From Chiloscyllium plagiosum (taxonomy: Eukaryota): 47,686 nt of DNA. Of this stretch, positions 740-41,999 are shown piece by piece. The position numbers and the translations under genes are program-made. The first letter of the stretch is position 1; each line of letters opens with the position of its first letter. The stretch is taken from positions 76,144,334 to 76,192,019 of the forward strand of contig NC_057718.1 of assembly GCF_004010195.1 (NCBI RefSeq), written 5' to 3'. A model generated the notes under the pieces. It did not search any database, was not told where the DNA came from, and saw only the letters and a program-made list of their open reading frames with translations.

Positions 740-2590
740 ACAGGGAGGAGATTCAATTAGGTTCTTGTCTAATGTGTGGAATGTTGGGGTGGATATCCAT
801 CTCAAATTTCCCGAAGAACTCTCCTGATTAGTATGTTCCGGGTTCAACGAGAGAGAAGGCATTCCTGGATCTGGAGCTGGAAATGAGGTGGGTCCAAGTG
901 ATCAAGTATCTCTGGGAGGTATTTGGTTAAGTGTTCGGTTCAAGTTCCACCTGCTCCAGAGCAGCACTATATCATCTCTGAATAGGTTGATGAGGAAAAT
1001 GTCTTACAATTGAAAAGGAGGGAGGAAGTACTGGTAAGGCTCTCTAAACATAGGGTAGATAAGTCACCTAATCTGATGGCTTGGATTCTAAAGGAAGTTG
1101 GGGTGGAGACAGTAGCAGGACTTCCCTTAACCTTTCAATCTTCCCCAAATGATGGATAAGGTTTTGATATCCTTAATCACAGAAAAATACAGAGATTTGA
1201 GGTAACTAAGGTGAGCCAGCATGGATTTTTAAAAGGTATATTGTGCTTGCCTAATCTAATCCACTTTTTGATGTTCTCTGCATGGATTTAAAGAAAACAT
1301 TGTTCAAATTTTTACCAAAAAAGGCTGATTAGCAACACTAAGGCTTATGGAATAGGAGGACAAAAGACAATCTGAATAACATATTGACTTAAGGAAAGAA
1401 AGCAGCTTGTCATGGGAGATAGTTAATTTTTCAGTAAGGAGGCAAGTGTACAGTTTTGTTTTAGGAGAAAGTGAGGATTGCAGATGCTGGAGATCAGAGC
1501 TGAAAATGTGTTGCTGGAAAATCACAGCAGGTCAGGCAGCATCCAAGGAGCAGGAGAATCGACGTTCGGGCATGAGCCCTTCTTCAGGAAGTTTTGTTTT
1601 GTTTTGTTTTTCAAAGGTAGATCTGCTGCTTTTTAAAAATACACTTACAAATAAATGATTTGGATCTTGGAATATGGAGTAAAATTTTAAAATTTGCTAA
1701 TGATTAGCAAACTCAGAGAAATGGTGAACAGTGGGGATGTTGTGAGGCACTGGCAACAGATAATCAATAGGCTAGCAAAATGGGCAGATAAAAGACAGGT
1801 GGAATTTACTTCAGAGAAATGTGTGAAGGTAAAGACAATGTCAACTTAATGACATAGATCTAAAGAATATGCAGGAACAGAGATACTTTGATATGTTTAT
1901 CAATCTTTGATGGTGACAGATCATATTAAGGGATTTGCTAGCAAAGCATGTCGGAATCTGTACTTCATAAATAAAGGGAATGAATACAACAGTAGGAATG
2001 TGTTGATGAACCTTTAAAAACCTGGCACGGCCCCAACTAAAGCACTATGTTCAATTCTGGTCACCAGACTTCAGGGAATACGTGCATATCCTTGAGACAG
2101 TGCAAAAGAGATTTACCTGAATGTTTCCAGGGATGGGAAGTTTTTAGTTACAGGTTTATGTTGGGAAGGTTGGGTGCTTTCTCCTTGGAGCAAAAGGTTT
2201 TGAGGGGCTATATGATTGATAAATTCAAGACTATGATGGGCTTGGATTTGTTGGACTTGCTTGGATTTACTTGGATAATCTGTTCCTGTTAGCTAATGAT
2301 CCAAGGGTGAGGGGAGACAGTTTTAAAGTCTTGGACAACAGATAAATGGGGCATGTGAGGAAATACATTACATGGAGCGTGCTAGTAACCTGGACATTAA
2401 TCATCCAGAAGAATACTGAAGCAAAAGCAATGAAAGATTTCTAAAGAAGTTAGAGGTATATTAATAAGAAATGACTTTGTAGTGCTATGCAGATGAAATG
2501 GCAGTATAGGAGTTATGGAATAACTCCATGGAAAGCCAGAATAGGCCCGATGGGCCATTTGGCACACCCCCTCCTTCCCTGCTGTAAATG
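740..2590 (+). mobile_element. Old, degenerate CR1-type LINE ORF2 and 3' end, interrupted at 1463-1589
   Basis: Decayed RT motifs (gataagtcacct, cagcatggattt, tatgttcaattctggtcacca). Boundaries approximate. Confidence 0.7.
1463..1589 (-). mobile_element. Solo PLE 3' terminal repeat (family A) with a defective hammerhead core
   Basis: Same sequence as the terminus attached to the GIY-YIG ORF at 40141. TSD agttttgtttt at 1452-1462 and 1590-1600. Core reads CTGAAGA...GAACGTC (one A missing). Confidence 0.88.
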
Positions 2591-2604
2591 TCTCTGACAC
2601 AACT

Positions 2605-2790
2605 ACAACAAAGAACTGCAGATGCTGAAGATCTGAAACAAAAACAAAAATTGCGGGAGAAGCTCAGCAGATCTGGCATCATCTTGGAGAGAAAGCAAAG
2701 ATGGTGTTTCAGGTCTAGTGACTCAATGAAGAGTTTTTATAGCAATTTCTGTTTTTATTTTAGATTTCCAGCATCTGCAGTATTTTTCTT
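2605..2790. mobile_element. Older fold-back PLE-terminus element
   Basis: Inverted ends actgcagatgctgaagatctg ... agatttccagcatctgcagt; related to the family A terminus. Confidence 0.6.
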
Positions 2791-2831
2791 TTCTAACAAT
2801 ACTGCTTGACTAGTGAGGGAGATAACAATCA

Positions 2832-3140
2832 GCACGGTGGCTCAGTGGTTAGCGCTGCTGCCTCATAATGCTGGGGCCTGGGTTCGATTCCAGCCTTGGG
2901 CAATTGTCTGTGTGGAGTTTGCACATTTTCCCCATGTCTGAATGCGTTTCCTCCAGGTGCTCTGGTTCCCTCCCATAATCCAATTAGCCATGCTAAATTG
3001 TCCATAGTGTTCAGGGGTTAGGTTAGGTGCATTAGTCAGGGGTAAGTGTAGAGCAATAGGGTAGGAAATTGGGTTTGGTTGGGATACTCTTCGGAGGGTT
3101 GTTGGGTTGGAGGGCCTGTTTCTAGACTGAAGGGATTGAA
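2832..3140 (+). mobile_element. tRNA-derived V-SINE (HE1-like)
   Basis: A-box ggtggctcagtggttagc, B-box ggttcgattcc, V-domain tgtgtggagtttgcac, CR1-like tail gggcctgtttc. Confidence 0.85.
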
Positions 3141-3549
3141 TTACAAAAAAAATGTTCTACATGACAAAAGTGAGTAGCACAATCATTAAAACAGAAGTTA
3201 AATTTTAATTTGTTACATCACCTTACAGATAAAACAGGAGTATTTTAAGAATCTCGGAAGTTTAAACTTCAGCAATGTAATGAGTTTGTAAATGATTCAA
3301 TGTATATCTGAATATTTATATTTACATATTTACTTAGAATTGAGCAATTTAAAGCTTGGTACGCCCAATGAGAATCTTGAATAATAATCTGAGACCCAAT
3401 TCAAAATACATCTGAACTTACACAAAATTCGGTGAATGCTAGAAATCTGTTATCTCTTTCCCTGCCTGGCCTACTGAGTATTCGCAGGAATTTTAGTTTT
3501 AATTCTACATTAAAATTGAGCTGGGTAAGACAATGTCAATTATCCTGTT

Positions 3550-6060: not shown

Positions 6061-6065
6061 ATTTC

Positions 6066-6250
6066 TCAGTGGTTAGCACTGCTGCCTCACAGCACCAGTG
6101 ACCCAGGTTAGATTCCTGCCTCAGGCAACTATTTGTGTGGAGTTTGCACATCTCCCCATGTCTGCGTAGGTTTCCTCTGGGTGATCTGGTTTCCTCCCAC
6201 AGTTCAAAGATGTGCAGGTCAGGTGAATTGGCTATGCTAAATTGCCATCC
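6066..6250 (+). mobile_element. Truncated V-SINE (HE1-like)
   Basis: ctcagtggttagcactgctgcctcacagc head plus V-domain; homologous to 2832-3140. Confidence 0.82.
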
Positions 6251-7699: not shown

Positions 7700-9010
7700 T
7701 CCCTTCCACACCCACTGCCTCAGCAGTTCTTGTAGAGATGTTCTTCATCTGAGATAATTGATCTCCAAACAATTACCACCTTCCTTTGCTGGGTATGACT
7801 CCAGTTTTGCTATAGCTCCTTGATGACATTTTCTTGTCAAATGCTGTCTTGATGTCAACTGGTAAGTCTTGACTTCCCTCTGGACGCCACTCTTCTGTCT
7901 ATTTGGACTGAAGCTGTAATGAGGTCAGGAGTTCAGTGACCCTGGCAGAACCCAAACTGAACATCAGAGAGCAGATTGTTGCTGAGTAAATGTTGCATGA
8001 AAGTAATGTTGATGACCCCTTCCAGACTGGTTTTGTCCTGCTTTTTTCCAGACAGGTCTTAGTGGCAGTGTGGTAGCTATACTGGAACTGCTTAGCTAGG
8101 GACATGGCTAGTTCTGGGACATAAATATTCAGTACTATCAGGGCCCATCTTTGCCACTAAGTACTTCAGCCATTTCTTGCTATCATTGGAATAAACAGAA
8201 TTGGAAGACTGACATTTGCACTGCAGGGTCCTCAGGAAGAGACCAAAATAGATCAATTTACTCAGCACTCCAGGCTAAACATGTACGCAAATGCTCCAGT
8301 CCATCTGCACACATGTGCTGGGTTCCCCATTGTTGAGCTTGGTAATATTTGTGGATCCATATCCTCCTGTCAGTTGTTTTGTTGTTCACCACCATTCATG
8401 ACTTAATATGGCAGGACTGCACAACTTTGCTCTGATCTTTTGGTTGAGGAATCGTTTGACTGCATCTCATGCTGCTTTCACGGTTTGGCACTTTTCTTTG
8501 TTGTAGCTTCACCAGATTAACATTGCAGTTTTAAGAAATGCCTAATGCTGCTCCTGTACTCTGCACTGAATCAAGGTTAATCTCCTCATTTGGTGGTGAT
8601 GGTAATGGTAGAGCGGAGGAAATGCCAGGCCATAAGATTACACATGGTGGTTGAATATAAACTTCTGTTGCAGCTGATGCCAACAGCAACTCACAGATGC
8701 CCAGTTTTTGGGATGCTAGAGCTATTTGCAATTGATCATTTTTAACACTGTAGCTATACCAAACAAAATAAGGAGAGTTAAGCTAAGTGTGAAGATGGGA
8801 CTTCATTTCTGCAAGGATTATCAAGTGGCCACTCCAACCATTAGGGTCATAAACATACTTAATTATGCTGATAGACAATTTTCCAGACATGACTAAGATA
8901 TGACAGCATTTTATTAACAGGTTGTTGCTTGTCTCGTCTGTGGGGCACCTCTCCTAAATTAGGCACATGAACAAGCTGTTAGTAAAGAGGACTATGCAGG
9001 GTTAACAAGA
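7700..9010 (-). mobile_element. Degenerate L2/CR1-clade LINE fragment
   Basis: Complementary to parts of 35330-36200 (agtact...cccagaactagccatg, gatgtcaa). Approximate. Confidence 0.55.
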
Positions 9011-9788
9011 CAACTGATGACATTTTATTTGTGGGATGTTGGTATCTTTCAGTAAAGAAACTTGCAAATTATGATCTATTAAACACCTACTTTAGTTTAA
9101 ATAGAGAATGCTGATGGAAACACACCCAAAGTGGTTTGGATAAATTACTAGCCAGCATATATAGGAGACAAATATTATGGTATTGAGTGCATTGGGTTGC
9201 ATTAGAATAACCCAAGTGATATCTTAAACTAGTTTGATTACCAAAAGAGGGTCAGAAGAGAATTTCCTAGATTCTTTCCCTCACAAAGATATTAATCTGC
9301 TCTTTTCACTTCTGGAAAGTGCCATGTAACTTTCTGGGAGAAGTTATAAAAGGAAACAATATTGTGTGAAAAGTTTTTGGATGATTACATAGGTTGATGG
9401 CAACAGTTGAGAGATATGGAGAATGCTTCCAGCTGAACAATAAATCTTGTTTTCATCATTCAAAGACCTTCCACAAAACAGAAATAAATTTTTTCGTTGC
9501 AACCAGGAAGAGAAGGCTTGAAAAAGGAGTCTCATACATCCAGGAACAACCTGCAAAAAGGAGATCAAGAATTACTTGGAATTTAACAATGTTAATTGGC
9601 CTAACTAGCACCTGTTATAGGTGCTATCCAGTAACCTCCTTGAGGCCATCGAGCCTAGTGAATGTATCTACTTGAATGACCTTCAGCCCTACTTGAAAGA
9701 TTTTGCTCCTCCTCATTTGGAGTTGCCAACACTGATTAAAGCTTCTCTTAGAGGTTTCATCATAAGTCTTGCCTGTCACTCCAGTCAG

Positions 9789-10000
9789 AGCTGAAAAATG
9801 TGTTGCTGGAAAAGCGCAGCAGGTCAGGCAGCATCCAAGGAGCAGTAGAATCGATGTTTCGGGCATAAGCCCTTCCTGAAGAAGGGCTTATGTCCGAAAC
9901 GTCGATTCTCCTGCTCCTTGGAAGCTGCCTGACGTGCTGCGCTTTTCCAGCAACACATTTTTCAGCTCTGATCTCCAGCATCTGCAGTCCTCACTTTCTC
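9789..10000 (+). mobile_element. Fold-back PLE-terminus element (family A)
   Basis: ~90 bp inverted arms; TSD (tc)actccagtcag at 9776-9788 and 9999-10011. Confidence 0.9.
9873..9908 (+). ncRNA. Minimal type-I hammerhead ribozyme motif (weak stem I)
   Basis: CTGAAGA, extra A, stem II GGGC-TTAT-GTCC, GAAAC-GTC; only 2 bp of stem I remain. Confidence 0.55.
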
Positions 10001-16704: not shown

Positions 16705-16834
16705 CTATAAAAAAAAAATAAAATCTGAAAATCCATATCATTGTTACGGTGTAAAGTGAGTTGAGAGAGTCTGGCAAAAACTTCATATCCTCTGATAAAT
16801 ATGCAAGAATATATTTGAATATATATATTTCCTG

Positions 16835-19490
16835 ATTATGATGTGGTAGGCATCACAGAGACGTGGTTGCAGGGGGTTCAGGACTGGCAGTTAAACATTC
16901 AAGGATTTACAACTTATCGAAAAGACAGGGAGATGGACAGAGGGGGTGGTGTTGCCTCGGTAGTTAAGAATGAAATTAAATCCGTGGCACTGAATGACAT
17001 GGGGTCAGATGATATGGAGTCTGTGTGGATGGAGTTGAGGAAACACAAAGGCAAAAAAAACAAAACAATAAAGGGTGTTATGTACAGACCTCCCAGCCAT
17101 GGTCAGGACCAGGTATGCAAGATGTACCAGGAAATAGACACAGCATGTCAGAAAGGCAAGGTCATGGTGATCATGGGGGACTTCAATATGCAGGTGGACT
17201 GGGTGAATAATGTTGCCAGTGGATCCAAAGAAAGGGAATTCATGGAATGCTTACAGGATGGCTTTTTGGAACAGCTTGTGATGGAGCCCACAAGGGAGGA
17301 GGCTACTCTGGACTTGGTTCTATGTAATGAGCCAGACTTTATAAAAGATCTTAAGTGTTCCCTTACTTTAGGAGGCAGCGATCATAATATGGTAGACTTC
17401 AGTCTGTAGTTTGAAAGAGAGAAGGCAAAATTGGATGTAATGGTGTTACGGTTAAATAAAGGTAATTACATGTGCATGTGAGAGGAACTGACGAAAATCA
17501 ACTGGAAGACAGTAGAGCAACAATGGCAGAATCTCAAAGAAAAGAAAGATTACCCAGGGATGGATTAGACAGCCATGGCTGACAAAGAAAATCAGGAAAT
17601 GCATCAAAGAAAAATAGAGAGCCTATAAAGTGGCACTGGAAAAATCAGAAGAATGGGAAGACTACAAAAACAGAGGATAACAAAGAAAGAAATAAGGAAG
17701 GAGAGGATCAAATATGAAGGTAAGCTAGCCAGTAATATTAGAAATGATAGTAAAAGTTTCTTTCAAGAAACAAACGAGAGGCAAAAGTAGAAATTGGGCC
17801 ACTCCAAATTGATGCTGGAAGGTTAGTGCTGAGAGATAAGGAAATAGCAGAAGAACTTAATAAGTACTTTGTGTCTGTCTTTACAGTGGAAAACAGGAGT
17901 AATATCCCAACAATTCAGGAGAGACAGGGGGCAGAGATGAGTATGGTAGCCATTACAAAAGACAATTGCTAGAAAAGCTAAAAGATAAATTGATAAATCG
18001 CCTGGTTCCGATGGGCTACATCCTAGAGTTCTAAGAGAGGTTCTAAGAAGAAATAACAGAGGCAGTAAATGTGATCTTTCAAAAATCACTGGAGTCAGGG
18101 AAAGTCCAGATGATTGGAAAATCGCTGTTGTAACCCCCTTGTTCAAGAAAGGATCAAGACAAAAGATGGAAAACTATAGGCCGATTAACCTAACCTCGCT
18201 TGCAGGTAAAATTCTAGAATCCATCGTTAAGGATGAAATTTCTAAATTCTTGGAAGTGCAAGGTCAGATTAGAACAAGTCAGCATGGATTTAATAAGGTG
18301 AGGTCCTTTCTGACAAACCTGTTAGAATTCTTTGAAGAGGCAACAAGTAGCTTAGATCAGGAGGCTGCTGAGTAAGGTGAGGGCCCGTAGTGTTCGAGGT
18401 GAGCTACTGGCATGGATTGGGGATTGGCTGTCTGACAGAAGGCAGAGATTTGGGATAAAAGGTTCTTTTTCGGAATGGTAGCTGGTGACAAGTGGGGTCC
18501 TGCAAGGTTCAGTGTGGGGCCGCAGCTGTTCACTTTATTAATAATCTGGATGAAGGGACTGGGGCATTCTGGCAAAGTTCGCCGATGATACAAAGTTAGG
18601 CAGATAGGCAGGTAGTAATGAGGAGGTGGGGAGACTGCAAAAAGATTTCAACAGTTTAGGAGAGTGGTCCAGGAAATGGCTGATGAAATTCAATGTGAGC
18701 AAATGTGAGGTCTTGCACTTTGGAAAAAAGAATACAGGTAGGGACTATTTTTTAAACTGTGAGAAAATTCATAAAGCCAAAGTACAAAAGGGAGTGCTAT
18801 CCAGGATTCTCTAAAGATTGATTGGCAGGTTGAGTCAGTGATTAAGAAAGCAAATTTAATGTTGTCATTTATCTCAAGAGGGTTAGAATGGAAAAGCAGG
18901 GATGTGATTTTATTACGCTCGAGTTAGGCCCCATTTAGAATGCTGTGTCCAATTTTGCACCCCACACTTCAAGAAGAACATACTGGCACTGAAGCGTGTC
19001 CAGCGGAGATTCACACGGATGATCCCTGAAATTGTAGGCCTAATATATGATGATCGGCTGAGGATCCTGGGATTGTATTCTTTAGAGTTTAGAAGGTTGA
19101 GGGGAGATCTAATAAAAACTTACAAGGTAATGCATGGCTTAGAAAAGGTGGATGCTGGAAAGTTGCTTCCATTAGGCAGGGAGACCAGGACACGTGGGCA
19201 GAGCCTTAAAATTAGAGGGGGTCAAATTAGAACGGAAATGAGGAGACATTTCTTCAGCCAGAGAGTGGTGGGACTGCGGGATTCATTGCCACAGAGCGCA
19301 GTGGAGGCCGGGACAGTTGGGTGTCTTCAAGGCAGAGATTGATAAATTCTTGATCTCACTAGGAATTAAGTGCTATGGGGAAGAGTGTGGGTAAGTGGAA
19401 TTGAAACGCCCAACAGCCATGATTAAATGGCAAAGTAAACTCAATGGGCTGAATGGCCTTGCTTCCAGTCCTATGTTTTATGGTCTTATA
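16835..19490 (+). mobile_element. Near-complete but frameshifted CR1 LINE ORF2 (APE endonuclease plus RT) with 3' tail, antisense to SENP6
   Basis: ORF 16843..17409 (GITETWL, YRPP, MGDFN, SDHN), 18139..18375 (NYRPINLTS, QHGF), 18626..18814 (KCEVLHFG), 19019..19342; tail cctatgttttatggtcttat. Confidence 0.93.
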
Positions 19491-23792: not shown

Positions 23793-25060
23793 TAAAAACC
23801 AGAAATTGCTGGAAAATCTCAATAGGTCTGACAGCATCTGAGGAGAGAAATCAGAAATAATGTTTCGGATCCAGTTTCAGGTGATGATAGCTAGGATAAA
23901 GTTGTTTTTTTTTTTGCAGAAGTTAGGTATGGGAGGGGGAAAGGAGTAAATGATATGACAAAGGAGTGGATATCAGTCAGCCTAGGAGAATGAATGGTTG
24001 TTAATAGGGATTACTAGTGGCTGACACCGGGTAGTTTGTAATAGCAGACCATGTGATAACAAGGCCTGGTGTGTGGGAATTGAGGTAAGGACATGCGAGA
24101 AGGTGCCTCAAACCCTAAAATTGTTGAACTTGGTATTGAGTCCAGAAGGCCGCAGAGTTCCCAAGCGGAAAGTGAGGTGCTGTTCTTCCAGCTTCGCTGG
24201 AGCACTGCAGCAAGCTTGAGACAAAGATACTGGCCAGACAACAAAGTGCTATGTTGAAATGGCAGGCAACTGGAAACTCAGGGTATTTTCTATGGACAGA
24301 ACATAGCTGTTCTGCTAAATTGGTCACCCAGCCTATGCTTTGTTTCCTCAGTGTACTGGAGACCACATTGTGAGCACTGAATGCAGTAGACCAGATTAAG
24401 TGAATTGCATGTAAAGCACTGCTTCACCTGGAAGGTATGTTTGGGCCCTTGCATATGAAGGAGGAAGAAAGTAAATGGGCAGTTGCCACACCTTCTGCAG
24501 TTGCATGGGAGGATGCCGTGGGTGTGGGGTGTGAGTGGGGGTGGGGGGTCTGTGTATATCTATGTGTTGGGAGTGAAGGAGGAATGGATCACAGTGTCCC
24601 AGAGAGAACGATCCTTGTGGGAGGCTGACAAGGGAGAGGAAAGGAATGTGTGGCTGGTGATGGCGTCCCGCTGGAGGTAGTGGAAATGGCGGCTAATAAT
24701 CCTCTGGATGTGGATGTTGGTGGTATGGTAGGTGAGGACAAGGGGGAATCTATCCCTGTTATGGGAGGGAAGAGAGGGGGTGAAGGCTGAAGTGCAGCAA
24801 ATGGGTTGGACTGGGCTAGCAGCCCTGTCAATTATGATGCTGTGGAATCCTTGGTTGAGGAAGATGGTGGACATGTTGAAGGCTCCCTTGTTGATTTTAT
24901 TTCATCAGTACAGGTGTGATGGAAATGGAGGAACTGAGAGAATGGAATAGAATCTTTCCAAGAGGTAGGGTATGGGAATATATAGTCATGGTAACTGTGG
25001 CAGTCAGTTGGTTTATTGTGGATATTGGTGGCCAGCCTATCCTTGGAAATCGAAACAGAA
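23793..25060 (-). mobile_element. Older PLE copy: RT thumb, GIY-YIG remnant and 3' terminus
   Basis: ORF 24560..24874 (NRDRFPLVLTYHTTN) is homologous to 1-293; ORF 24115..24366 (PVACHFN) is homologous to 40204-40677. Confidence 0.82.
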
Positions 25061-25439
25061 GGTTTACTTATCTATCGTCTTGTGGGGTTGGATGTCCACC
25101 GCATGTTACAATTTTATGTTTTCAGCTCCAGATTTCTAGTACTTTTCCTGAAATTCCTTGCATAATTTCCCCTTCTTTAATATCTGCTCAATCACATATA
25201 AATTTATCTCTGATCACTTTCTTGAATTGCTCTCCACCCAGCTCTTCACTCTTCATTTTCTTCTAGATTCATTTACAACTTCATTTTCAAAATTCAAGCT
25301 GTGGCTTTTACTCATGACATTTCTGTGGTTACTTATCTATTTATCCACACCTTTATCTTTGATGTCTACTTCCACTGTTCTTTCAAACACTGGTTGTTCA
25401 ACTAGTACAGATCTCATCCTCACTTCCATTCGAATTCAA

Positions 25440-25675
25440 TAAAAGAAATTTAGAATTCAATCTAGTGATGACCATAAATCCAATACTGATTGTCGGAAAA
25501 ACCCATCTGGTTTTCTAATGTCCTTTAGGGAAGGAATCCTTACTTGATCTGACCTACACCTGACTTCAGACCAACAGCAAGCGATTGACTCTTAACTGAT
25601 CTCTGGGCAATTAGGGATAGGTAATAAATGATGATCTAGATGGCAATGCCCTCATCCAATAAACAAACATAAAAC
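25440..25675 (+). mobile_element. tRNA-head SINE family (3' half) with a LINE-shared tail
   Basis: aaaacccatctgg...aatgtcctttagggaagg...ggcaattagggat; same family as 31845-32372 and 40945-41240. Confidence 0.7.
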
Positions 25676-26553: not shown

Positions 26554-27167
26554 CTTAATAATAGGACAAATTTTTATAGTCAATACAAAGGACTGATCCT
26601 GACCAGCAAGGTTTGTGAAAAGTATGAAGCAAGTCATATTAATGAGTTCATAATCATCAATTCTATCCCACCTCCCCTTGATTCAAGTTGTGAGAACAAT
26701 TCAAGTATGATATTTAGAATGACATTTTTATATCTCATAATCATCTCATGGAGGACAAAATAAAACAGACAAATGCATAATCATTGCACCAACTAATCCA
26801 TGTATTTTTTGCACAGGAGCTATTAACTGTCGAGAGATATAATATTTTGTTTTCAATGTCAACATCACAGTGCATGTAAAATGCAGTTTCAACTCTCTAT
26901 GCTATCTAGTCATTAAGGTGACGTGAGATTTTATGCTGCTTTTCACACATTAGGCTTTACTGTAAGATTGAGAATATACGCTTTTACACAGTGAGTGGTT
27001 AAAACCTCAAAACCACTACCTACACGAATGGTGGAGGCAGATTTAATTGTTACTTTCAAAAGGAAATTTGATAAATACCGAAAGAGAAAAATTTGCAAGT
27101 CCACAGCGAAAGGGCAGGGACATGGAGCTCCTACAGAGGACACCCTTGGCTTATTTGCATTCAAAAC

Positions 27168-27300
27168 GGTTCTGAAGCAGGGTCACTGGACTTGAAATGT
27201 TAATTCTACTTTCTCTCCACAAATGCTGCCAGGCCTGAGCTTTTCCCAGAAATTTCTATTTTTGTTTTAGATCTTCAGCATCCACAGTTCTTTGTTTTAT
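27168..27300 (+). mobile_element. Old PLE terminus with a decayed hammerhead
   Basis: gttctgaagcagggtcactggacttgaaatgttaat followed by ...cagcatccacagttctttg. Confidence 0.55.
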
Positions 27301-28347
27301 ATTTTTGGTTTAATATAATTTTGTATTTAAATATTAAATTGAATATAAATACAAACAATCAATCCCTTCTGCTGTTAAAACCAAATACAAACTACTGGAG
27401 GATTAAAAGAGTTGGTAACTTAACAGTAACTTATGAAATAACAGTAACAGGCTGGAAGACATAGGAAAGACAAATGATATTTACAAACATCATTCTATAC
27501 ACAGACATTCTACAAGATTTGAGGTTTCACTTTTGGTGAGATTAAAGCTTGAGCATTACATATATAGAGACACAATGAACAGGGAACTAAATACTGTAAT
27601 ATTGCAAGTGTGCAGTTAAGACCAATGTGCTAAAAACTGCATAAGATTGGGGCAAATACGAAGCAGTCTAAGATATGGGTTTGAAATGCAAGTGCATAAG
27701 ATAAATAAGAGTAGTGAGCTGGAGATGCAGATCATCGACATGGAACATGACATATCAATAATAATAGAGGCCCTGTCTCAAAGAAAGTGTAGAATGAGAA
27801 CATCTGGTTACAAGTTACATAGGATTGATAAGGAAGAAAAAAATGAGAATTTGCAATATTGGTCAAAAAGGACTAATGTTATTAAGGGAATAATGAGATA
27901 ATCTATTTGATTAAAATTAAGTAACATAGAAACTTTTATTCTACTTAGTGTATACTATAAGCTACCAAATAATGTGAAGGCTAACTTTAAAAGTATGCAA
28001 AAATTACAGAGTAACCAGAGACATACTACTGTCCTCACATAGAATGGGCATTCAAAACTAGAGCTCCTTGTATAACTGAAGATATCATGGGTTAAATTCA
28101 ACAGTCATTGAAACTGGGTGTGGGATTGTAATGCATTGCACACATTGACTGCTATGCAGTCAGCATGACAATTTCAAAAATGCAAATAGCTTTTCTCTTT
28201 GAAGTGTCAACAAATGATGCTGTTATTCTGAAACACCTACAAGTGCAATTATTAATGAGTCATACATGTATGAGGCCATAAGAAGACTATCCTGTTACCC
28301 TTAAAATAATTACACAATAAAATTGCTATACAGGGTTCTGGTCTCAC

Positions 28348-28427: not shown

Positions 28428-30021
28428 CTGTTTAGAAAATCAACATACATTGTAATCAGTGTTAAACTGAAAATTCTAAACATCAACAGCTCCATTAAAC
28501 CTGTAGCTCTGAAAATTATGAAACTGATGTTAACATGGTTCAGAATGTGCTGAAAATCAAAATTAATAGCAGAATGTCCTTCAACTTCAATGGTCAATCT
28601 TGGGACAACCTGATCACCAACCACACCCCAGTCACCCTTGCAATTATCCTCCAAAATCAAGGAACATCTGACTTCAAATTAGCAACTTCAATTATCCCAA
28701 CCGCAGTGTCCTGTCCTGGGTCAGTCAGCTGGTTGTTTAAGTCACGACAGTTTTCAGTTTCATTCACACCCGCCTTATAAACATCAAGAACAAATTCAAG
28801 AGTTATTTCTTGGAATCAGATGCTGGAATTTAAAATAAATATTTGCTCAATCCTCTAAGGCAGGGGTGTTCTATGTGGTTGACTTAAATGCCTCATACTC
28901 CATCAGATACACATGACATACACCAAGCAGATAGCTGAATATCATGGCACATAAATAGGCTTAACTGATAACTTTGGGTCACAGTGAACCCATCAGCTCC
29001 AAGCATTTCTTAAGTTTAAAACTGCAACTTTGAATCTATTGCCTGAATTTACAATTTTACTGTTTCATAACAAATTTTGAAACAAAAGCAACGTAGCACA
29101 TTCTGTGACAATATTGGTGGAGAAACAAAATGAAATTGTTGTTTTGGAGTGTGAAGCTTTCCACAGAAGGTACAGCACTTTCAGACAGAACAGTGAGGTT
29201 GGAAGAGAAGTTGAAAGAAGGTAAGGAGGTAAATCTGGAGATAGTGGACCTGAATAAGCAAAACCTGCAATGACTATGTAAGAGAATTGATTTTACAATT
29301 AGTAGTTTTTAGCAGACCAACAGTGCTGGTATCATTGTTAGACAAATGCTGTGTGCAGAAAACATGAACTGATGTACCTTTTATTTGTAAAGTACCCAGA
29401 GCGTTCACATAGTACAAAACCATAATCCAGCTCGAAAACTTATGACATTTCACAGCCCCTTCATTTCTAAACTATGTTTCAGATTAAAGGAACCATAATT
29501 TTCAATGAAATCTCTGAAATAAACTTGCAATATAATCAAAACACCTTCACATTTGATACCAATTGAATGTTACCCAAATGATTTCCAAGGGTGTAAAATG
29601 ATGAGAAAGTGGAAAACCCACAGTGGGGAAATCCACACTAGAAAGCACATTTCTGCCTCCCCCCCCAGAAAAACTTAAAATATTTACTGAAAGTGGTGAA
29701 TCAAAATGACAAAATTAAGTGTCAATAATGGATGAAAACTCATATTTCTGCATATATTATTGAAAATAATGTGTAGCAATATCAGAACCAACTAATTAAA
29801 ATCCAAAGAAGTGAGAACCAAGGAGTGTAAAGTTGTCATTAATTATGAAATCAGTGAAACAAATTCTGAAATGACAATTTGGCAGGGGTACCGATCTCAA
29901 ATGGCAACTTGTAAAGTTTACTTAAATCTTGACAATTTCAGGTTCTTTTGTACAAAAGATCCAAAAGGAAAACTTCTCGAGTAGATCAAGAATAAATGTT
30001 AACAACTACCTAGCTGTTTAC

Positions 30022-30401
30022 CTTCCGCAACATTTTGTGCCTTCTGGTTTGAGTTTTGGTCATCTTCTGATTCAGTATCCAGTTGATTAACATTACTCAG
30101 GAATTTATTAGTTGCTAACAGACATCTTCTTGTATGTAGTTTATCAAATTCCACACACTCACAGATATTGCCAGCACTAAGTTCAGGGATTTTGTCTGTG
30201 GTGTCAGGGGATTTTCTCAGCACATTTGCTGCAGTCAAGTTGTCTGCTAAACCATCAGTCTCCCCTGGCAATGATGGCCAGTTACTGTTGCTTTCCTCTA
30301 GTACGGAGTTGTTGATTTGCATTCCTTCATTTTCCTGTGACTTAGAATTTGATTCAGTGCAAAGGCCAGGAAAACAAATCACAGCCAAAAACCAATGAGC
30401 C
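30022..30401 (-). CDS. SENP6: SENP6 exon with catalytic His (AHWFLAVICFPGL) and start of the long disordered insertion
   Basis: ttgttttag acceptor, AG|gtaaac donor, 380 nt, phase 2 to 1. Overlaps ORF 29999..30388. An alternative donor 12 nt further on is also in frame. Confidence 0.93.
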
Positions 30402-31321
30402 CTAAAACAAAGAAAAAGGATTTTACATTAATATCTTGATTCATTCCTAAAGAACTTAGGCACTTAACTCCGTTTTCTAGGTTAGGTTAATTATGCCACA
30501 ATGAAAGCTTAGAAAACTTCTAAGTTATATTTTCATAAACTGGTCTGTTTTCAGATGACTCAGTAAATTATTAAGTAACGGACAGTAAAAATTAGGGTCC
30601 TATTCTAGATTTCTATAAATTTGAGCACATGTGGCTATAGTAGAAATCACTGGTCTCAACACATGGATGCAACGGTCTTTAGCTTGGGCACTTCTTGCCT
30701 TAACCGTTCCATGCTTCAAGTCTTCCCTCATTTCGCCTTTCATCCTTGAATCACGATCCAAAAAACACAGTCACTCTCTCAAAACCTCCTCGCACCTTAA
30801 TTGGGTTGCTTCACAGTTTCCTCTGCTTTAGTGCCCATAGAATCTTCTGTATTTGTCAAGTTACTGATAGGAAATTTACTAGATAGTTATCAAGGACGAG
30901 GAACTTCAGTTATGTGGAGGAAGCAGGAAAATGGGGAGGATTATCGTTGAAGTAAAACAGAGGGAGCGAGGCAAGATTTGATGCAAATGTTCAAAATCAT
31001 GAAGGGTGCTGAGAGAACAAATAAGGATCCCAACTCCCAGTTGCTATTCAGTTGAAACATCACATGCAGATTTTGGCTGAGGGCAGGATTAGACCAAGTT
31101 ATAATGTCTGCAATACTTGATTGATCAGTTAAACTTTGTTATGGATCAGGCATTAATAACAGCCATTTAGAAGTGTTCATGGATACCCCAGTTTCTTATG
31201 ATCTAAATTGATGATACTACTAGGTAAGTCAGAACCTAGGATAAAATCTGGCTTGACAGAACATATGTTTATTTTATTTGTTTAGTTGGTTAATGTAGCA
31301 GTTAGTCACCAAGACATAATA

Positions 31322-31630
31322 GCGACACAGTTACTCAGTGGTTAGCAGTGCAGCCTCAGTGCCAGGGAGGCAGGTTCAATCCCACCCTTGGGTGACTGTG
31401 TGTGTGGAGTTTGCATAATCTCATGTCTGCGTGGGTTTCCGCCAGATGCTTCAGATTCCTCCCACAGTCCAAAGGTGTGCAGGTTAGGTGAATTAACCAT
31501 GCTAAATTGCCCAAAGTTTCTAGGAATTTGCAGGCTAGGGGATCATGGGTGGGTCTGAGGGGGAAGCTCTTTGGAGGGCCATTGTGGACTTGATGGGCCA
31601 AATAGCCTGCTTCCACACTGTAGGAATTTT
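31322..31630 (+). mobile_element. V-SINE (HE1-like)
   Basis: ctcagtggttagc head, ggttcaatccc B-box, V-domain, tail gggccaaatagcctgcttccacactgtagg. Confidence 0.83.
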
Positions 31631-31875: not shown

Positions 31876-32072
31876 GTGAAAAATGTGGTGCTGGAAAAAC
31901 ACAGCAGGCCAGGCAGCATCCGAGGAGCAGGAGAATCGACGTTTCGGGCATAAGCCCTTCTTCAGGAATGTCGATTCTCCTGCTCCTCGGATGCTGCCTG
32001 GGCTGCTGTGCTTTTCCAGCACCACATTTTTCAACTCTGGTACTCCAGCATCTGCAGTCCTCACTTTCTCCT
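31876..32072. mobile_element. Fold-back PLE-terminus element (family A variant)
   Basis: Inverted arms; perfect 15-bp TSD acatgggcatcattg at 31861-31875 and 32073-32087. Confidence 0.92.
31933..31969 (-). ncRNA. Minimal type-I hammerhead ribozyme motif
   Basis: ATTC-CTGAAGA-A-GGGC-TTAT-GCCC-GAAAC-GTC-GATT. Confidence 0.72.
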
Positions 32073-32572
32073 ACATGGGCATCATTGACTAGACCAGCAT
32101 TTTATTGCCCGGAGGGCAGTTAAGTGTCAATTACATTGTTGTGAGTCTGAAGTCACATGCAGGCCTGACCAGATAAGGACAGCATTCCCTTTCCTAAAGG
32201 ACATCAGTAAACCAGATGGGTTTTTCTGACAATCAACAATGGTTTCACAATCATCAGTAGACTCCCAATTCCAGCTATTTATTGAATGCCATTTATTTAA
32301 TGTCCCCAGACATTACCTGGGTTGGTGGATTAATTGTCTGGTGATAATACCACTAAGGCCATAACCTCCCCATCACTTAACTGACTTGACAGTTTTCTTG
32401 CTGCGGACTTTAAGAGAATTCAATGGGTTTTTTTCCAAATCCGTCAACTTAAGCTTTTTCACAAATCTGAGAGCCTCATGTGAAGATTCATAACCAAACC
32501 CACTTGGCCTAGAAATTTCTCAAATTAAACTCTTCTGCCAAGGTAGTTTATTCCAAGAACTACCTCTCGGAG

Positions 32573-32969
32573 TGATGTGGAGGTACTGGTGTTGGATTGG
32601 GCTTGACAAACTTAAAAAATCATAGAACATCAGGTTATAGTCCAACAGATTTATCTGGAAGTACAAGCTTTCGGAGCGCTGCTCCTTCACCAGATAGCTA
32701 GTGGGGCAGGATCACAGGACACACAATTTATATTGAAAGTTCAAAGTGCCATACGAAATTGTATGACACTTTGAACTTTTACTGTAAATTCTGTGTCCTG
32801 TGATCCTGCCCCACTAGCTACCTGAAAGCTTCTCTGCTCTAGTGCCCAGAGAGTCTTTTGTATTTGTCAAGTTACTGCATAGGAAATTTACTAGATAGTT
32901 ATCAGGGATGAGGAAAGCTTGTACTTCCAAATAAACCTGTTGGACTATAAATTAATGTTGAGAGATTTC
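32573..32969. mobile_element. Older fold-back element (family B-related), both hammerheads disrupted
   Basis: Long inverted arms with apex at ~32755-32760; degenerate TSD ctacctctcggag / ctacttctaggag. Minus core reads CTGGTGA; plus core is replaced by an insertion. Confidence 0.8.
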
Positions 32970-35329: not shown

Positions 35330-37280
35330 GGCCTCTTTAGTCCTCAATTTTACTACTACCATCAAGCCAGGTGCAGGGATACCCCATCATTTTGGATGGG
35401 AATACTTATGGAACAATTAGTTGTTTAATTATGCAGAACCATAGATATCGCAGGAACTGCAGAGCTTCGAAATCAAGCCTATTTCAATGAAAGCTGCAGA
35501 GGAACTACAAGTAGCACCAGTTGATGCTTAAAAATAAAGGGTCAATCAGGTGAAGCAACAAAACAAACAAATGGATCTGATCAAAGTGCTGCAGTCCTGC
35601 CATAATTAAACAATTGCTCAACAAATGTTCCTATCCACAATGATGGGGGAACCCAGCACCTGTGCAAAAGACAAGGGTAAATATTTGCATTCATCTTCAG
35701 CCAAAAGCGCTGAATGGACAATCTACTACGGCTCCTCCAGGTCTCTCCAGCATCACAAGTGTTAGCCTTCAATCAATTTAATTCCCTCCTTATGATATTA
35801 AAAAAGTTGAAAAACAATGCATACTGAAAAGACCCTGACAACATTTTGGTAATAGTACTGAAGATCTGTGTTCTAGAACTAGCCGCATTCCTCGTCAAGC
35901 TGCTTCAGTACACTACAATACCGGCATCTTAACTGGCAATGTGGAAAATTGCTCAGATATGTCCTGGTCACTCAAAGTAGAACAATTGTAACCCAGTCAA
36001 TCAATTACTACCCTACCAAACTACATTCTATCAAGAAAGTAGTGGAAGAGGTCATCGACAGTGCTTTTATGCAGAACTTGCAAAGAATGACCTGTTCGCT
36101 GACATTCAACTTTGGTTCTCCCAGGGCCAGATGCTTCTGACCTCATTAAAGCCTTGGTCCAGACACAGACATAAGATCTAAATTCCAGAGACGAAGAGAG
36201 AATGGGCGCCCTTGATATTAAGGCAGCGATCAGAGTATACTATCAAGGAACCAGCTTAACCGAAGTCAATAGGAATCCAAGGAAAAGAGCCATGACTAAC
36301 ACAAAGGAAGATAGTTGTAGTTTTTGGAAATCAGCTATCTCAGTTCCAGAACATCATACAGAAGTTTCCCAAGGTGGTGACTTAGCTCAACTATCTTCAT
36401 CTGCTTTATTAATTACTTTCGTTCCATTATAAAGTCAGAAATGGAGATATTCACTGATAACTGCACAATGTTCAGCACCACGTGCGATTCATCAGATAAT
36501 GAAGTAGTCCATATTCAAATGCAGCGAGACCTGGACAACATACAGGCTTGTGCTGCTAAGTGACAAGGAATATTAACACCATACAAGTGACAAGTAATTA
36601 ACATCTCCAATAAGTGAGAATCTGATCATCAACCTTTGAGTTTTAATGGAGTCAACATTACCAAATCACCCACAATAAACATTTTGGGTGTCTCTATTGA
36701 CCAGTTATGAAATTAACCAAGCATATAAATATTATGGCTAAAACAGCAGTTCAGAGGCTAAACATTTTTCTGGTGACTAATTCACCTCCTAACTTCCCAA
36801 AGCCTGCCCACCATCTACAAGGCACTAGTCAGGAGAATGAATGGATGTGGGCAGCTGCAAAAACACTCAACAGGCTTGACACCATCCAGGACAAAGCAGC
36901 ACACTTGACTGCCATTACATTAACTCCTTCCACCACTGACATACACATTGCTTCCACCATGCAGTCAACAAAATGCATCACAGTAAGTCACTAAGTGTTC
37001 TTTGGTCTTACAAACCCACCCTGACCACCTAGAAAGACAAGGGACAACAGCAGCAGATGCACAGGAGCACCACACCATTTCAACTTAGAACTATATCGCC
37101 ATTCCTTCACTGGGTCACAATCGTGCAACTCATCACCTAACAGCATTGAGTGTGTTCCTCTACCCTAATGGCTGCAACACTTCAAGGCAGCTGCTCACCA
37201 TCTTCTCCAGCTCAATTAGAGATGGGCAACAAATGCTGGTCTAGCCGTTATTGCCCACATCACAAGAACAAATAAAAGCA
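35330..37280 (+). mobile_element. Degenerate L2/CR1-clade LINE with 3' tail
   Basis: INYYPTKL (decayed NYRP), ALDIKAA, ttcactgataactgcaca (decayed FADD), LDTIQDKAA; tail caattagagatgggcaacaaatgctgg. Confidence 0.75.
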
Positions 37281-38060
37281 AACTGTGGTTCTCAAGTCTC
37301 TTAGAAGTTAATTGATAATCCAACAAAATAAAATTAAGCTACTGAGGGAAAGGGTTATTAGCTAGGTTACGATATCCTTTTTATTCAATGTGCAAGATAA
37401 TGGTTTAAAAATCATTAAAAATCAATTTCTTCCAGAAATACATGAACTGGGATTCTGCACATGACAGCCAAAGATGTTCTATTACATAAATCAAATGAAC
37501 AGAAAACCACTGGGAGGTGGACCAGCAGAAAACTCTAGCCTCAAGCTTTAGATGAATAAACAGGGTGCGTACTAAATTAAGTGCATCTATATTGGGACAG
37601 GATGGTGTATCAGGAAAGGATATTTTAGAAATTGCCATTCATCCAATATGGAAAGGGAAAAACAAGTTCTTCAAATGGAACTGAAAGTATTTTGAAAGGC
37701 ACATCAATAATTAGTTAAAGCAAAGTACTGTGGATGCTGGAAATCTGACATAAAATCAGAAACTAATTTGATGTGGAAAAGAAACAGAGTTAATATCAAG
37801 TCTAGTACAAGTTTGTTTCTTTCTGCACAGGTGTTGGTAATCCTGCTGATTTTCACCAGCATTTTCTGTTAACAATGAAAAGTTAGGGTCCAATATGGAC
37901 ACTCCCTCAACACAATCAGCCTTACTGATTTCCCATTGGTTTAATAGGACATCCTCAAAACTTTGGAAGAACATAGGATTTTTCACAAAACCCTTTTCAT
38001 GCATCCCACTCCAATACAGGAAAGTCACACAACTGTTGTTTCTCAGTTATGAAAGCTTAC

Positions 38061-40140: not shown

Positions 40141-40677
40141 AGGAGAAAGTGAGGACTGCAGATGCTGGAGATCAGAGCTGAAAATGTGTTGCTGGAATGC
40201 AGGTTAGGGAGGCGGTGCTGAGTTCGAGGGGTTTGGCTGAGACAAGGTGGGGGGAGGGGAAATGAGGAAACTGGAGAAATCTGAGTTCATCCCTTGTGGT
40301 TGGAGGGTTCCTAGGCGGAAGATGAGGTGCTCTTCCTCCAACCGTCGTGTTGCTACAGTCTGGCGATGGAGGAGTCCAAGGACCTGCATGTCCTTGGTGG
40401 AGTGGGAGGGGGAGTTGAAGTGTTGAGCCACGGGGTGATTGGGTTGGTTGGTCCAGATGTCCCAGAGGTGTTCTCCGAAACGTTCCGCAAGTAGGCGGCC
40501 TGTCTCCCCAAAATAGAGGAGGCCACATCGGTTGCAGCGGATGCAATAAATGATGTGTGTGGAGGTGCAGGTGAATTTGTGGCGGATATGGAAGTATCCC
40601 TTGGGGCCTTGGAGGGAAGTAAGGGGGGAGGTGTGGGCGCAAGTTTTGTATTTCTTGCGGTTGCAGGGGAAGGTGCC
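40141..40677 (-). mobile_element. Young 5'-truncated PLE: GIY-YIG endonuclease frame joined to the family A terminus
   Basis: Uninterrupted frame 40677-40204: GTFPCNRKKYKTCAH...FTCTSTHIIYCIRCNRCGLLYFGETGRLLAERFGEH...PVAQHFN...RRLEEEHLIFRLGTLQPQGMN. The Cys-rich linker suggests the Neptune group. 40141-40197 matches the fold-back element terminus. Confidence 0.92.
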
Positions 40678-40944
40678 TCATTCACAATGCGTTCTAACTG
40701 AAGTTTTTATGCATTTCAACTATAAGGTGCTCTTGCATATAATGTAGACAGGATCATTTTCTTTTTTGCATGCTCAAAAATACCCACATTTATGTACTTA
40801 TGCCTCCACACACACGCACACAAACCTATATTTAGATAAATACTTGAAATGACACTGCCTAGAAGATTACAGGCTAAGTGCTGGGAAACAGGATTACAGT
40901 AGATAAGTGCTTGAGACTGGCAACGACATAATGGCCTTCAAACA

Positions 40945-41240
40945 TTTTTTAAAATTCATTCATGGAAATGTGGGCATAACTGACTGGTCCAGCATTATCC
41001 AGAATTAGCTTGTCACAAATTGCCCAGAACGCAGTTAAGAGTTAACTACATTGCTGTGGGTCTCGACTCACATGTAAACCAGACCAAGTAAGCACAGACG
41101 CTTCCCTAAAGGACATCAGAGAACCTCACAATCAACAATGGTTTCATGATTTTTTAAAAATTCAATTCAAATTCCAGCTGTGATTCAAACCTGGGCCCTC
41201 CAAAACCTGGGATTCTGGAGTAATAGCCTAGTGAGAATAT
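40945..41240 (-). mobile_element. tRNA-head SINE (same family as 31845-32372)
   Basis: attcattcatgg...cagttaagagttaactacattgctgtggg...ttccctaaaggacat. Confidence 0.7.
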
Positions 41241-41338
41241 TGTAGAAAATGTTAATCAGGGCAACTTATGAACTTCCACACAATTTCTATAAACGTGCAC
41301 TGTATTATTTGAGCCGGTAATCTACCTCCTCTGAATGG

Positions 41339-41549
41339 AAAAAGTGAGGACTGCAGATGCTGGAGATCAGAGCTGAAAAGGTGTTGCTGGAAAAGCGCAG
41401 CAGGTCAGGCAGCATCCAAGGAACAGGAGAATCGACGTTTCGGGCATAAGCCCTTCTTCAGGAATCAGGGCTTATGCCCGAAACGTCGATTCTCCTGTTC
41501 CTTGGATGCTGCCTGACCTGCTGCGCTTTTCCAGCAACACATTTTCAGC
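41339..41549. mobile_element. Very young fold-back PLE-terminus element (family A)
   Basis: ~85 bp arms with one mismatch; perfect 18-bp TSD tctacctcctctgaatgg at 41321-41338 and 41550-41567. Confidence 0.94.
41429..41466 (-). ncRNA. Minimal type-I hammerhead ribozyme motif
   Basis: GATTC-CTGAAGA-A-GGGC-TTAT-GCCC-GAAAC-GTC-GATTC: full core, 4-bp stem II, 5-position stem I with one U-U mismatch, palindromic ACGT. Confidence 0.78.
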
Positions 41550-41999
41550 TCTACCTCCTCTGAATGGCCAACACTGAAAATGAGTCCATTGTTACTGTTC
41601 AGCTTTTCTTTCAAAACCTTTTATGCAAAATCAATGCCATTGACTTTATACTTATGTCACGTGTTTAAAGTGAAAACCACTACCCAATGTTCAACTGCAT
41701 TGTATATCTCATCAGGCTAAAAACTGTTAACTGCCTGTGCCCCTAGTTTAATGCTGTCTGCAATTTAAAAACAAAACTTAACTGGCTTTTATATGCAGAT
41801 AAAAAAATGGATCTAAACATTGACACTTTGTTTTCCTTTCAAAGTGACCTTTTCCATTGAACAACTCCCTGTGACCGTGTAACACACTGCCTGCCAACAA
41901 ATTCTTATCCAGGTCCATTTTCTACCTTAAATTCTCAGTCAAATCTACCACATGAGACATTGCAAAAATCCTTCTGATGGTTCAAATAAACAATTTAAC

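Follow-up and report, generated by a model that had tools for sequence, protein, structure and literature searches.

A 47,686-nucleotide stretch of the genome of the shark Chiloscyllium plagiosum (here called the window) carries five short fold-back insertions, each of which is composed of two 5′-truncated 3′ ends of the Penelope-like element (PLE) type joined head to head. These hairpins are likely to be one-off products of abortive insertion in which the hammerhead ribozyme is predicted to be shut. Because the layout has already been described for the PLE class, the elements themselves are no surprise, and most likely they do not constitute a new self-spreading element.

The five fold-backs, which an earlier note had proposed from the sequence, are real: they span 197-397 bp each, with inverted arms that are 84-97% alike. 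Three belong to family A. The insertion at 9789-9998 (A2; its end had been placed at 10000) has a tail-less left arm and a right arm that carries the tail and a hammerhead core at 9876 on the plus strand, with a 3-nt overlap at the apex (arms 9785-9875 and 9881-9971, 95%). At 31876-32072 (A3) the tail-less left arm holds the core (31965, minus strand) and the tail-bearing right arm begins 3 nt short of where cleavage is predicted (arms 31877-31943 and 31967-32033, 96%). The insertion at 41339-41549 (A5) has its tail on the left arm, a core at 41461 on the minus strand with cleavage predicted between 41434 and 41433, and a right arm that begins in stem II (arms 41369-41459 and 41462-41552, 97%). 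Two others belong to family B, both with the tail on the left arm. That at 20104-20426 (B1; arms 20153-20253 and 20314-20414, 93%) keeps an intact core at 20225 on the minus strand, the right-arm core (20342, plus strand) has a damaged stem II, and a 60-nt loop includes a 15-nt duplicated segment. The older insertion at 32573-32969 (B2; arms 32691-32754 and 32761-32824, 91%, plus 32617-32672 and 32913-32968, 84%) has both cores broken; in its right arm an 84-nt stretch (32832-32915), 92% similar to 30821-30903, stands in place of the core. Loops are short in A2 (5 nt), A5 (2 nt) and B2 (6 nt). A sixth, older fold-back, absent from the earlier list and belonging to the related family C, lies at 2604-2795; its arms are 79% alike and both have tail-like ends. 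A solo family A end on the minus strand (1463-1589) runs from a degraded hammerhead to the tail, and its 5′ end lies within 2-3 nt of the common family A stop.

Element 3′ ends face outward in all five listed fold-backs, and a single arm carries the extension, or tail, of 27-44 nt (five of five, or five of six when the older insertion at 2604-2795 is counted). The apex differs in position in each of the five and none is shared within the window, which suggests separate insertion events, as judged from these five elements. Target-site duplications (TSDs) are exact at four insertions, with 13 bp at A2 (9776-9788/9999-10011), 12 bp at B1 (20092-20103/20427-20438), 15 bp at A3 (31861-31875/32073-32087) and 18 bp at A5 (41321-41338/41550-41567). 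For B2, a 13-bp repeat with two mismatches (32560/32970) was found by eye, a quality matched by 22 of 19,767 random pairs, and a scripted direct-repeat search gave just a chance-level 8-mer; in the control for direct repeats, a score of at least 11 was reached in 1 of 295 random position pairs. The 11-bp repeat around the solo copy (1452/1590) is of low complexity and weaker than the fold-back TSDs, and the direct-repeat search found none for 40141-40677, 2604-2795 or 35368-35662. Together, the one-sided tail, the outward-facing 3′ ends, the variable TSDs of 12-18 bp and the differing apices support a PLE origin and a stereotyped abortive insertion product, both of which the earlier note had put forward. 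Its other suggestion, a non-autonomous class of hairpin-ribozyme elements, is not supported, as no apex recurs within the window and the hairpin is predicted to close the ribozyme.

A descriptor for minimal hammerheads gave five matches over the window, at 9876 and 23072 on the plus strand and at 20225, 31965 and 41461 on the minus strand, compared with a mean of 0.09 (maximum 2) in 200 shuffles. Four fold-backs thus keep a core and the fifth is broken, as had been claimed, and the motif at 23072 is a new addition. The core, the extra nucleotide before stem II, G10.1-C11.1 and a palindromic stem III are all present, and helix II has 4-5 bp. Helix I has 2 bp in family A and 3 bp in family B, shorter than the 4-5 bp described for the type, and in the solo copy GAAA lacks one A. 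A scan with Rfam, which had been proposed for detecting type I hammerheads, returned no hammerhead model among its 12 matches at E ≤ 1; all were miRNA-hairpin models with sub-gathering scores.

Folding z-scores, computed for two insertions, are −24.7 (41339-41549) and −19.1 (32573-32969). The paired fraction of the MFE structures is 0.68-0.88 across the fold-backs, so that the description “almost entirely self-complementary” is overstated for 32573-32969. In every predicted fold, the tail is unpaired with the opposite arm. Adopting the active shape is predicted to cost 11-56 kcal/mol in four of four hairpins versus 1-4 kcal/mol for their arms alone, and the predicted probability that the cleavage nucleotide is unpaired in the hairpins is at most 0.001. 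Moreover, the antisense arm always precedes the ribozyme in the fold-back, and each strand has at most one sense core. These features, together with the cost of the active fold, make a working ribozyme in hairpin form unlikely; it is predicted to be folded shut. Neither a promoter nor a second sense core was seen in the hairpins.

Consistent with the earlier statement that the fold-backs have no coding sequence, their longest ATG-led frames are 19-64 aa. On the minus strand, the last 57 nt of a family A end, with the tail and without the hammerhead (40141-40197), are joined to the end of a GIY-YIG frame (40204-40677). This attachment had been reported for a family A terminus as such; the joint is real, but neither a hammerhead nor a 3′ UTR is present at 40141-40677, so the link is weaker than first stated and could reflect a deletion or a chimera. 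The 157-aa frame corresponds to a 5′-truncated Neptune-type PLE endonuclease with a CX4-(C>Y)xxC linker and a CxxC within GIY-YIG; the motifs read CNRKKYKTC (one C>Y, at a cysteine that homologues retain) and CNRC. Its linker ahead of GIY-YIG (CX2-5CxxC in general form), C-terminal EN and CCHH cysteines within GIY-YIG place it in Neptune/Nematis, an assignment that covers both clades. The GIY-YIG homologues are RT+EN proteins, the best named being from Chiloscyllium punctatum (83%) and Rhincodon typus (62%).

Two other PLE relatives lie in the window. At 23783-25113 (minus strand), a broken RT-to-GIY-YIG frame is accompanied by a 3′ UTR of ∼230 nt, a degenerate hammerhead and a family C end, 71-73% similar to that of family A and continuous with the RT-EN frame. 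At 22725-23145 (plus strand), a frameshifted C-terminus that resembles an endonuclease and has a YIG motif occurs together with TATAAAT, the full minimal hammerhead at 23072 and the terminus; a Pfam search with a 44-aa piece gave no match, and neither did the 22882-23031 peptide against P0008. We saw no intact copy with ORF, 3′ UTR, hammerhead and end for family A or B, and no protein-coding partner or ORF link for family B. With a 40-aa peptide spanning the end of family A as query, no longer protein was recovered (one candidate, none at E ≤ 0.01), which gives no confirmation of an ORF start in the family A hammerhead region.

Public reads and contigs were compared in three runs with data, covering two related species (organisms A and B); of 395 joints, 15 were listed, as were 18 of the 2009 loose ends, and the X2 counts are incomplete. 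Among those listed, loose ends fall at 41337 (716 reads; 1187 and 1278 contigs), 41381 (475 reads; 903 and 825 contigs) and 41465 (300 reads; 519 and 447 contigs), and all three recur in three of three runs with unrelated flanks (agreement 0.32-0.49). Qualitatively, these data support a family A end that is very abundant in both species, in line with the high copy number expected earlier; the summed contig depth (11-19 million, against 6.5-15 for the unique flank) is a qualitative indicator and does not count copies. Family A has two preferred 3′ ends in the reads, the tail end and the tail-less end at 41381. Its 5′ ends cluster ∼4 nt before the CUGAAGA core and away from the cleavage site, which suggests run-off from the RNA 5′ end. 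The pile-up at 41465 may include ends 1-3 nt further on, cut back because of a private letter at 41466; 207 reads pass 41466, and 177 of these carry one common next letter. Such a fixed 5′ stop is not general, since family B arms extend ∼28-66 nt beyond the core.

The alignment of a 2067-nt single-copy contig of organism B breaks off at 41338, where the left TSD copy ends, and a contig of organism A continues into the element at 41339-41549; judging by the organism B contig as far as 41338, the site appears to be empty in that organism. Some joints, such as that from 41464/41465 to 41431, of a kind not given, have a depth of 54-96 versus 6.5-15 for single-copy sequence, and because this is the depth of several copies, apices may recur. 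Also among those listed are head-to-tail joints from 41465 to 41337 (28 and 16 contigs) and to 41341 (17 and 16), as well as rare opposite-strand joints between the tail end and the tail-less end (41341/41376; 5 and 9 contigs). In contigs the terminus has ∼5-10 times the depth of GIY-YIG, a ratio inflated by a GIY-YIG reference that is 10-15% off most records. In RNA, a tandem joint occurs in one read only. RNA run X21, a fragmented polyA library in which circular or monomer RNA ending at the cleavage site would not be expected to register, shows no pile-up of starts or ends; its strand bias at the terminus is ∼2:1 towards hammerhead sense and is reversed over GIY-YIG, and because 95% of its reads continue into unlike sequence, the signal is taken as read-through of many copies and carries no weight here. 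A 20-nt family A motif had no matches in viral contigs and none in metagenome contigs. Among the indexed runs no RNA data set was listed as a carrier, which weighs neither way.

Insertions of EN+ PLEs that combine a pLTR, an adjacent inverted 5′-truncated copy, a one-sided tail of 30-40 bp and a TSD are described in Craig 2021 (PMC8557442) and Arkhipova 2013 (PMC3846280), and opposite-strand pairs of minimal hammerheads 100-700 bp apart in Schistosoma in Cervera 2014 (PMC4209133). For an anole PLE in vitro, Frangieh 2024 (PMC11167929) reports that both strands are nicked and extended, that two internal starts define the tail and that the hammerhead is dispensable. The origin of PLE tandem and inverted structures is called undefined (Craig 2021) and the later insertion steps are left unvalidated (Frangieh 2024).

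Insertion probably begins with a GIY-YIG nuclease making staggered cuts 12-18 bp apart, of which the TSDs are the observed trace. Reverse transcription of PLE RNA would then be primed from both exposed 3′ ends, from one of them at the tail end (the outer start) and from the other 27-44 nt further in; the two ends are observed here, and two-strand extension from two internal starts is drawn from the anole PLE in vitro. Both cDNAs would end prematurely, and the family A stop seen before CUGAAGA is probably the RNA 5′ end at an initiator-like sequence. The cDNA ends would then be joined over the 0-3 nt of overlap seen at the junctions and presumably filled in by repair. The hammerhead would be a passenger of the terminal repeat, active, if ever, in ordinary tandem transcripts.

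The shark insertions share outward 3′ ends, an inverted copy, one tail, a variable TSD and a hammerhead in the terminal repeat (pLTR) with canonical EN+ PLEs (Penelope/Poseidon, Neptune, Nematis). However, both shark copies are reduced to 66-200 nt with no ORF between, the TSDs are 12-18 bp versus 8-10 bp in rotifer examples, and the 5′ ends of family A favour a stop immediately ahead of the core. In PAc (Poseidon, Anolis carolinensis; Frangieh 2024) the two ends are likewise separated by 30-40 nt and lie ∼90-145 nt downstream from the hammerhead, and the cleavage site shows no RNA ends, whereas the endonuclease beside family A has the Neptune/Nematis linker, which is absent in Poseidon. Minimal type I hammerheads from PLEs of metazoans (Cervera and de la Pena 2014) match in core, extra nucleotide, G10.1-C11.1 and palindromic 15.2-16.2, but have a helix I of 4-5 bp (the 2 bp of family A are as in D. 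virilis Penelope), and the shark hairpin motif, with its helix II of 4-5 bp, faces its own antisense strand. Non-LTR retrozymes are also non-coding, hammerhead-bearing and PLE-related, and family A forms head-to-tail joints elsewhere in both organisms; yet retrozymes are direct tandems with two same-strand ribozymes, and the window's elements are inverted pairs that contain no head-to-tail same-strand hammerhead units.

The same PLE origin and one-off character would hold if a cDNA primed at the tail stalled, folded on itself and was copied back to near its start, a snap-back route that we judge decidedly unlikely. It would account for private variants common to both arms in A3 (2 differences in 56 nt versus 4-7 between insertions), A5 (0 versus 3-6) and B1, whose arms are also more alike than those of different insertions, and it agrees with the short loops of A2, A5 and B2 and with the self-complementarity of stems II and III. 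However, it leaves unexplained the ending of the second arm at the tail-less position (41381), where public reads with unrelated flanks also tend to end and which coincides with the second RT start of the anole PLE, and the arms of A2 (4 differences versus 3-7 between insertions) have no private variants in common. We give little credence to family A as a non-autonomous unit, a retrozyme- or SINE-like RNA just ∼130 nt long with its own 5′ end, that a Neptune-type PLE mobilises in trans and that yields solos, tandems and fold-backs as insertion forms. The sharp 5′ boundary, the head-to-tail joints and the depth of the terminus relative to GIY-YIG would fit, as would retrozymes being PLE derivatives, one of them chondrichthyan (bioRxiv 10.64898/2026.07.22.740005). 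But the window has no tandem, RNA offers the single tandem read, the dominant 5′ end differs from the cleavage site, the depth ratio is inflated, and the agreement of reads past 41466 argues for common upstream sequence. Such a unit would in any case alter the template and not the insertion chemistry.

That the hairpins spread as units, their fold-back transcripts leaving the tail as a single-stranded 3′ overhang on which PLE RT starts, is very improbable: the unpaired tail, the rare tail/tail-less joints and the possibly recurrent apices speak for it, and the five differing apices, the lack of a promoter or second sense core and the predicted closure of the ribozyme against it. Ordinary DNA MITEs with chance hammerhead-like words are hardly credible. 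Although the insertions resemble MITEs in being short, non-coding, inverted and abundant, their ends are asymmetric by 27-44 nt, their TSDs are long and variable, their apices vary, solo and ORF-attached ends exist, and the cores occur far above chance; the TSD and tail data contradict this reading.

Beyond abortive insertion as such, it is conceivable, if on the whole unlikely, that family A stubs are integrated ‘strong-stop’ cDNAs, with RT proceeding from two internal sites on both nicked strands at once to an RNA 5′ end 4 nt before the core, and with a share of second arms made from ribozyme-cleaved RNA and starting at the cut. Were this so, the shark genome would document in vivo, on a very large scale, how inverted ends and tails of PLEs arise and whether the hammerhead cleaves in the course of transposition; re-mobilisation of some hairpins from the single-stranded tail might also occur.

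Repbase and Dfam are said to list palindromic Penelope-derived repeats, such as the crocodilian Chompy, for which our literature search gave no confirmation. Nothing on short shark PLE fold-backs or a fixed stop before the core was found among the matches listed by that search, which covered openly available papers. The value of these insertions lies in a natural dataset, young, abundant, TSD-bounded and minimal, that would allow start sites, stop sites and junction overlap to be counted and two-strand priming to be set against snap-back. For annotation, the fold-backs look like MITEs and attract matches to miRNA hairpin models, as in the 12 sub-threshold Rfam matches.

The five fold-back insertions are real. 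Three belong to family A (A2, 9789-9998; A3, 31876-32072; A5, 41339-41549) and two to family B (B1, 20104-20426; B2, 32573-32969). An inverted-repeat comparison bears out the positions given in the earlier note, with arms of 56-101 nt that are 84-97% alike, and the two elements tested by folding have z-scores of -25 (41339-41549) and -19 (32573-32969). Direct repeats had also been claimed beside the insertions; they are exact in four of the five (12, 13, 15 and 18 bp), a score equaled by one of 295 random pairs. The repeat flanking 32573-32969 is 13 bp long with two mismatches, and 22 of 19,767 random pairs are equally good.

Read along the hammerhead-sense strand, each arm is a 5′-truncated 3′ end, and the 3′ ends of a pair point outward. 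One arm extends 27-44 nt beyond the other in all five elements, forming a tail. The apices, where the arms meet, differ among the three family A elements and between the two of family B; the arms either overlap there by 0-3 nt or are separated by a short additional sequence. In A3, A5 and B1 the two arms resemble each other more closely than they do arms of other insertions; A2 does not show this. A sixth, older fold-back, of the related family C (2604-2795), has tail-like ends on both arms and a degenerate hammerhead.

Four of 24 listed public runs, from two related species (organism A RNA reads and DNA contigs, organism B DNA contigs), were compared with 40199-41482. Among the best 18 of 2009 loose ends, positions 41337, 41381 and 41465 are found in each of the three informative runs; their flanks are unrelated (agreement 0.32-0.49), and the loose parts in contigs are about 255 nt long. 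By contrast, where the repeat simply continues, agreement is 0.55-0.77 and contig loose parts are 14-20 nt. Position 41337 marks the tail end. Position 41381 corresponds to the tail-less end, which a private letter at 41380 cuts short, and position 41465 lies four bases before the hammerhead core on its 5′ side. All four hammerhead-bearing family A insertions of the window have an arm end within 3 nt of the 41465 equivalent, and the predicted cleavage site (41434/41433) is absent among the best six loose-end places of each run. Because G occupies 41466 in 177 of the 207 RNA reads running past it (junction letters being the best 12 of 156), the sense sequence around 41465 fits an initiator consensus, and the RNA start site of family A may lie near this position. 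A 125-129 nt unit is joined head to tail in at least 16-28 contigs among the best 15 of 395 joints, organism A contig counts being lower bounds. In organism B, the match of a single-copy contig of 2067 nt stops at 41338, the end of the left duplication copy, and that of another contig begins at 40680, so the insertions at 41339-41549 and 40141-40677 look absent there. A sister subfamily has the family A tail in common and diverges behind 41372 (245 reads; at least 578 and at least 570 contigs).

We consider it probable that the fold-backs were made by two-strand priming. A staggered cut at the target would provide two primers, each of which would start at either of two sites inside the RNA of a Penelope-like element (PLE); both cDNAs would halt prematurely, which in family A would often be at the probable 5′ end of the RNA, and their ends would be joined and then filled in. 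The window or the reads show target-site duplications, two 3′ ends, a single tail in each hairpin, apices that vary and a preferred 5′ stop; the joining step would complete the scheme. In an anole PLE both strands are nicked and extended, two starts define the tail, and a dimer is predicted (Frangieh 2024, PMC11167929); by analogy, the same chemistry may hold in the shark.

Against two-strand priming we count the small number of elements, joints known from the best 15 of 395, some recurrent joints at 41464/5-41431, and a family B that has no fixed stop beside the core. Snap-back copying is an unlikely source of the arms, and copying from a short retrozyme-like template is more doubtful still. 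That the hairpins spread as whole units is very improbable, and that they are MITEs is scarcely credible.

Parts of the layout that two-strand priming would yield are familiar. An inverted truncated copy with a one-sided tail and duplications is described for PLEs (Craig 2021, PMC8557442; Arkhipova 2013, PMC3846280) and repeated in a curation guide. Opposite-strand hammerhead pairs 100-700 bp apart are reported, as are many solo motifs from truncated PLEs (Cervera 2014, PMC4209133), and tandem retrozyme forms include one chondrichthyan (bioRxiv 10.64898/2026.07.22.740005). In the main texts of the open literature, a scope outside which Repbase and Dfam lie, we found no description of short shark PLE fold-backs or of a fixed stop before the hammerhead core. 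The preferred 5′ stop of family A is the single part that merits a census.

The two family B apices are each some 56-66 nt ahead of the core, which may mark a second preferred stop (n=2). The B1 loop (20254-20313) contains a 15-nt segment twice (20259-20273, 20297-20311), TATAAAT included. In B2 the right-arm core is replaced by 84 nt (32832-32915) that are 92% identical to 30821-30903, 2 kb upstream in the same orientation; the AAGCTT palindrome of stem III lies on both sides, and the replacement appears to be a templated insertion of local origin. In families A and C the tail-less ends (41369-41381, 2735-2760) are no more than about 5 nt from a run of pyrimidines with AG after it, a sequence resembling a splice acceptor.

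A minimal-hammerhead descriptor gave five matches in the whole window against 0.09 expected, one at 23072 and four inside listed fold-backs, in agreement with the earlier claim of a core in four elements. An Rfam scan of the window, which the note had proposed, found no hammerhead. The motifs carry an extra nucleotide before stem II, a G-C closing pair and a palindromic stem III, all listed features of PLE minimal hammerheads (Cervera and de la Pena 2014, PMC4209133), from which they differ in a helix I of only 2-3 bp. In the alignment, the two family B elements have different third pairs in helix I, C-G in one and U-A in the other (one pair, two elements).

Because the 3′ ends point outward, the antisense arm comes before the sense arm along either strand, and no strand has more than one sense core. 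The predicted cost of the active shape is 11-56 kcal/mol in four of four hairpins, versus 1-4 in their single arms; pairing of the cleavage nucleotide is predicted with P≥0.999. In the predicted fold of family A the CUGAAGA word is in the apical loop, yet the fold ties up stem I and the cut site. The hammerhead is thus predicted to be shut in the hairpin form. Minimal hammerheads are described as requiring a second same-strand copy and cleaving weakly (Cervera 2014, PMC4209133), and the anole ribozyme as protein-dependent and dispensable for in vitro insertion (Frangieh 2024, PMC11167929).

The proposed tie of family A to a GIY-YIG frame stands in part: what is attached at 40141-40677 amounts to just the final 57 nt of the family A end, lacking the hammerhead and 3′ UTR. 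This copy is therefore a chimera or has undergone a deletion, which leaves the tie suggestive. The frame itself (40204-40677) has a weak Pfam GIY-YIG match (E 7e-4, below cut-off), RT+GIY-YIG proteins among 15 longer homologues, and best named homologues in Chiloscyllium punctatum (83%) and Rhincodon typus (62%), which makes a carpet shark the probable host. It starts with a CX2-5CxxC linker with one Cys changed, a linker that Craig 2021 (PMC8557442) assigns to Neptune and Nematis, not Penelope/Poseidon. The usual order of ORF, 3′ UTR, hammerhead and end occurs in two other relics. One (23783-25113, minus strand) is a broken RT-GIY-YIG relic with a 3′ UTR and a family C end 71-73% like that of family A; an 11-bp direct repeat lies around it at 23745/25292. 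The other (22725-23145, plus strand), a truncated PLE end of another type lacking a fold-back, has a YIG motif, a frameshift, TATAAAT, the complete minimal hammerhead at 23072 and a terminus; we presume from its motif that it is Poseidon-like. No ORF link was found for family B within the window.

Further PLE pieces are a family A solo end (1463-1589), solo family C ends with degenerate hammerheads (27160-27301, 37716-37762) and an RT-region fragment (2-298, minus strand; 91% identity to P0003 over 99 aa). An inverted repeat at 35368-35662 (arms 60-73 nt, 77-78% alike; spacer 175 nt), partly like 8403-8565, showed neither a target-site duplication nor a hammerhead when searched for both. Several broken LINE relics that retain parts of an endonuclease and an RT lie at 16819-19342, 42211-43284 and 46100-47138, and an N run at 42647-42787. 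An open frame of 142 codons (29999-30427, minus strand), with nothing better than E 0.076 against Pfam, may be a host exon. Two short dispersed repeat families, each of three pieces (2833-2983, 6062-6246, 31326-31511; and 25461-25612, 32104-32261, 41018-41146), are probably of SINE type.
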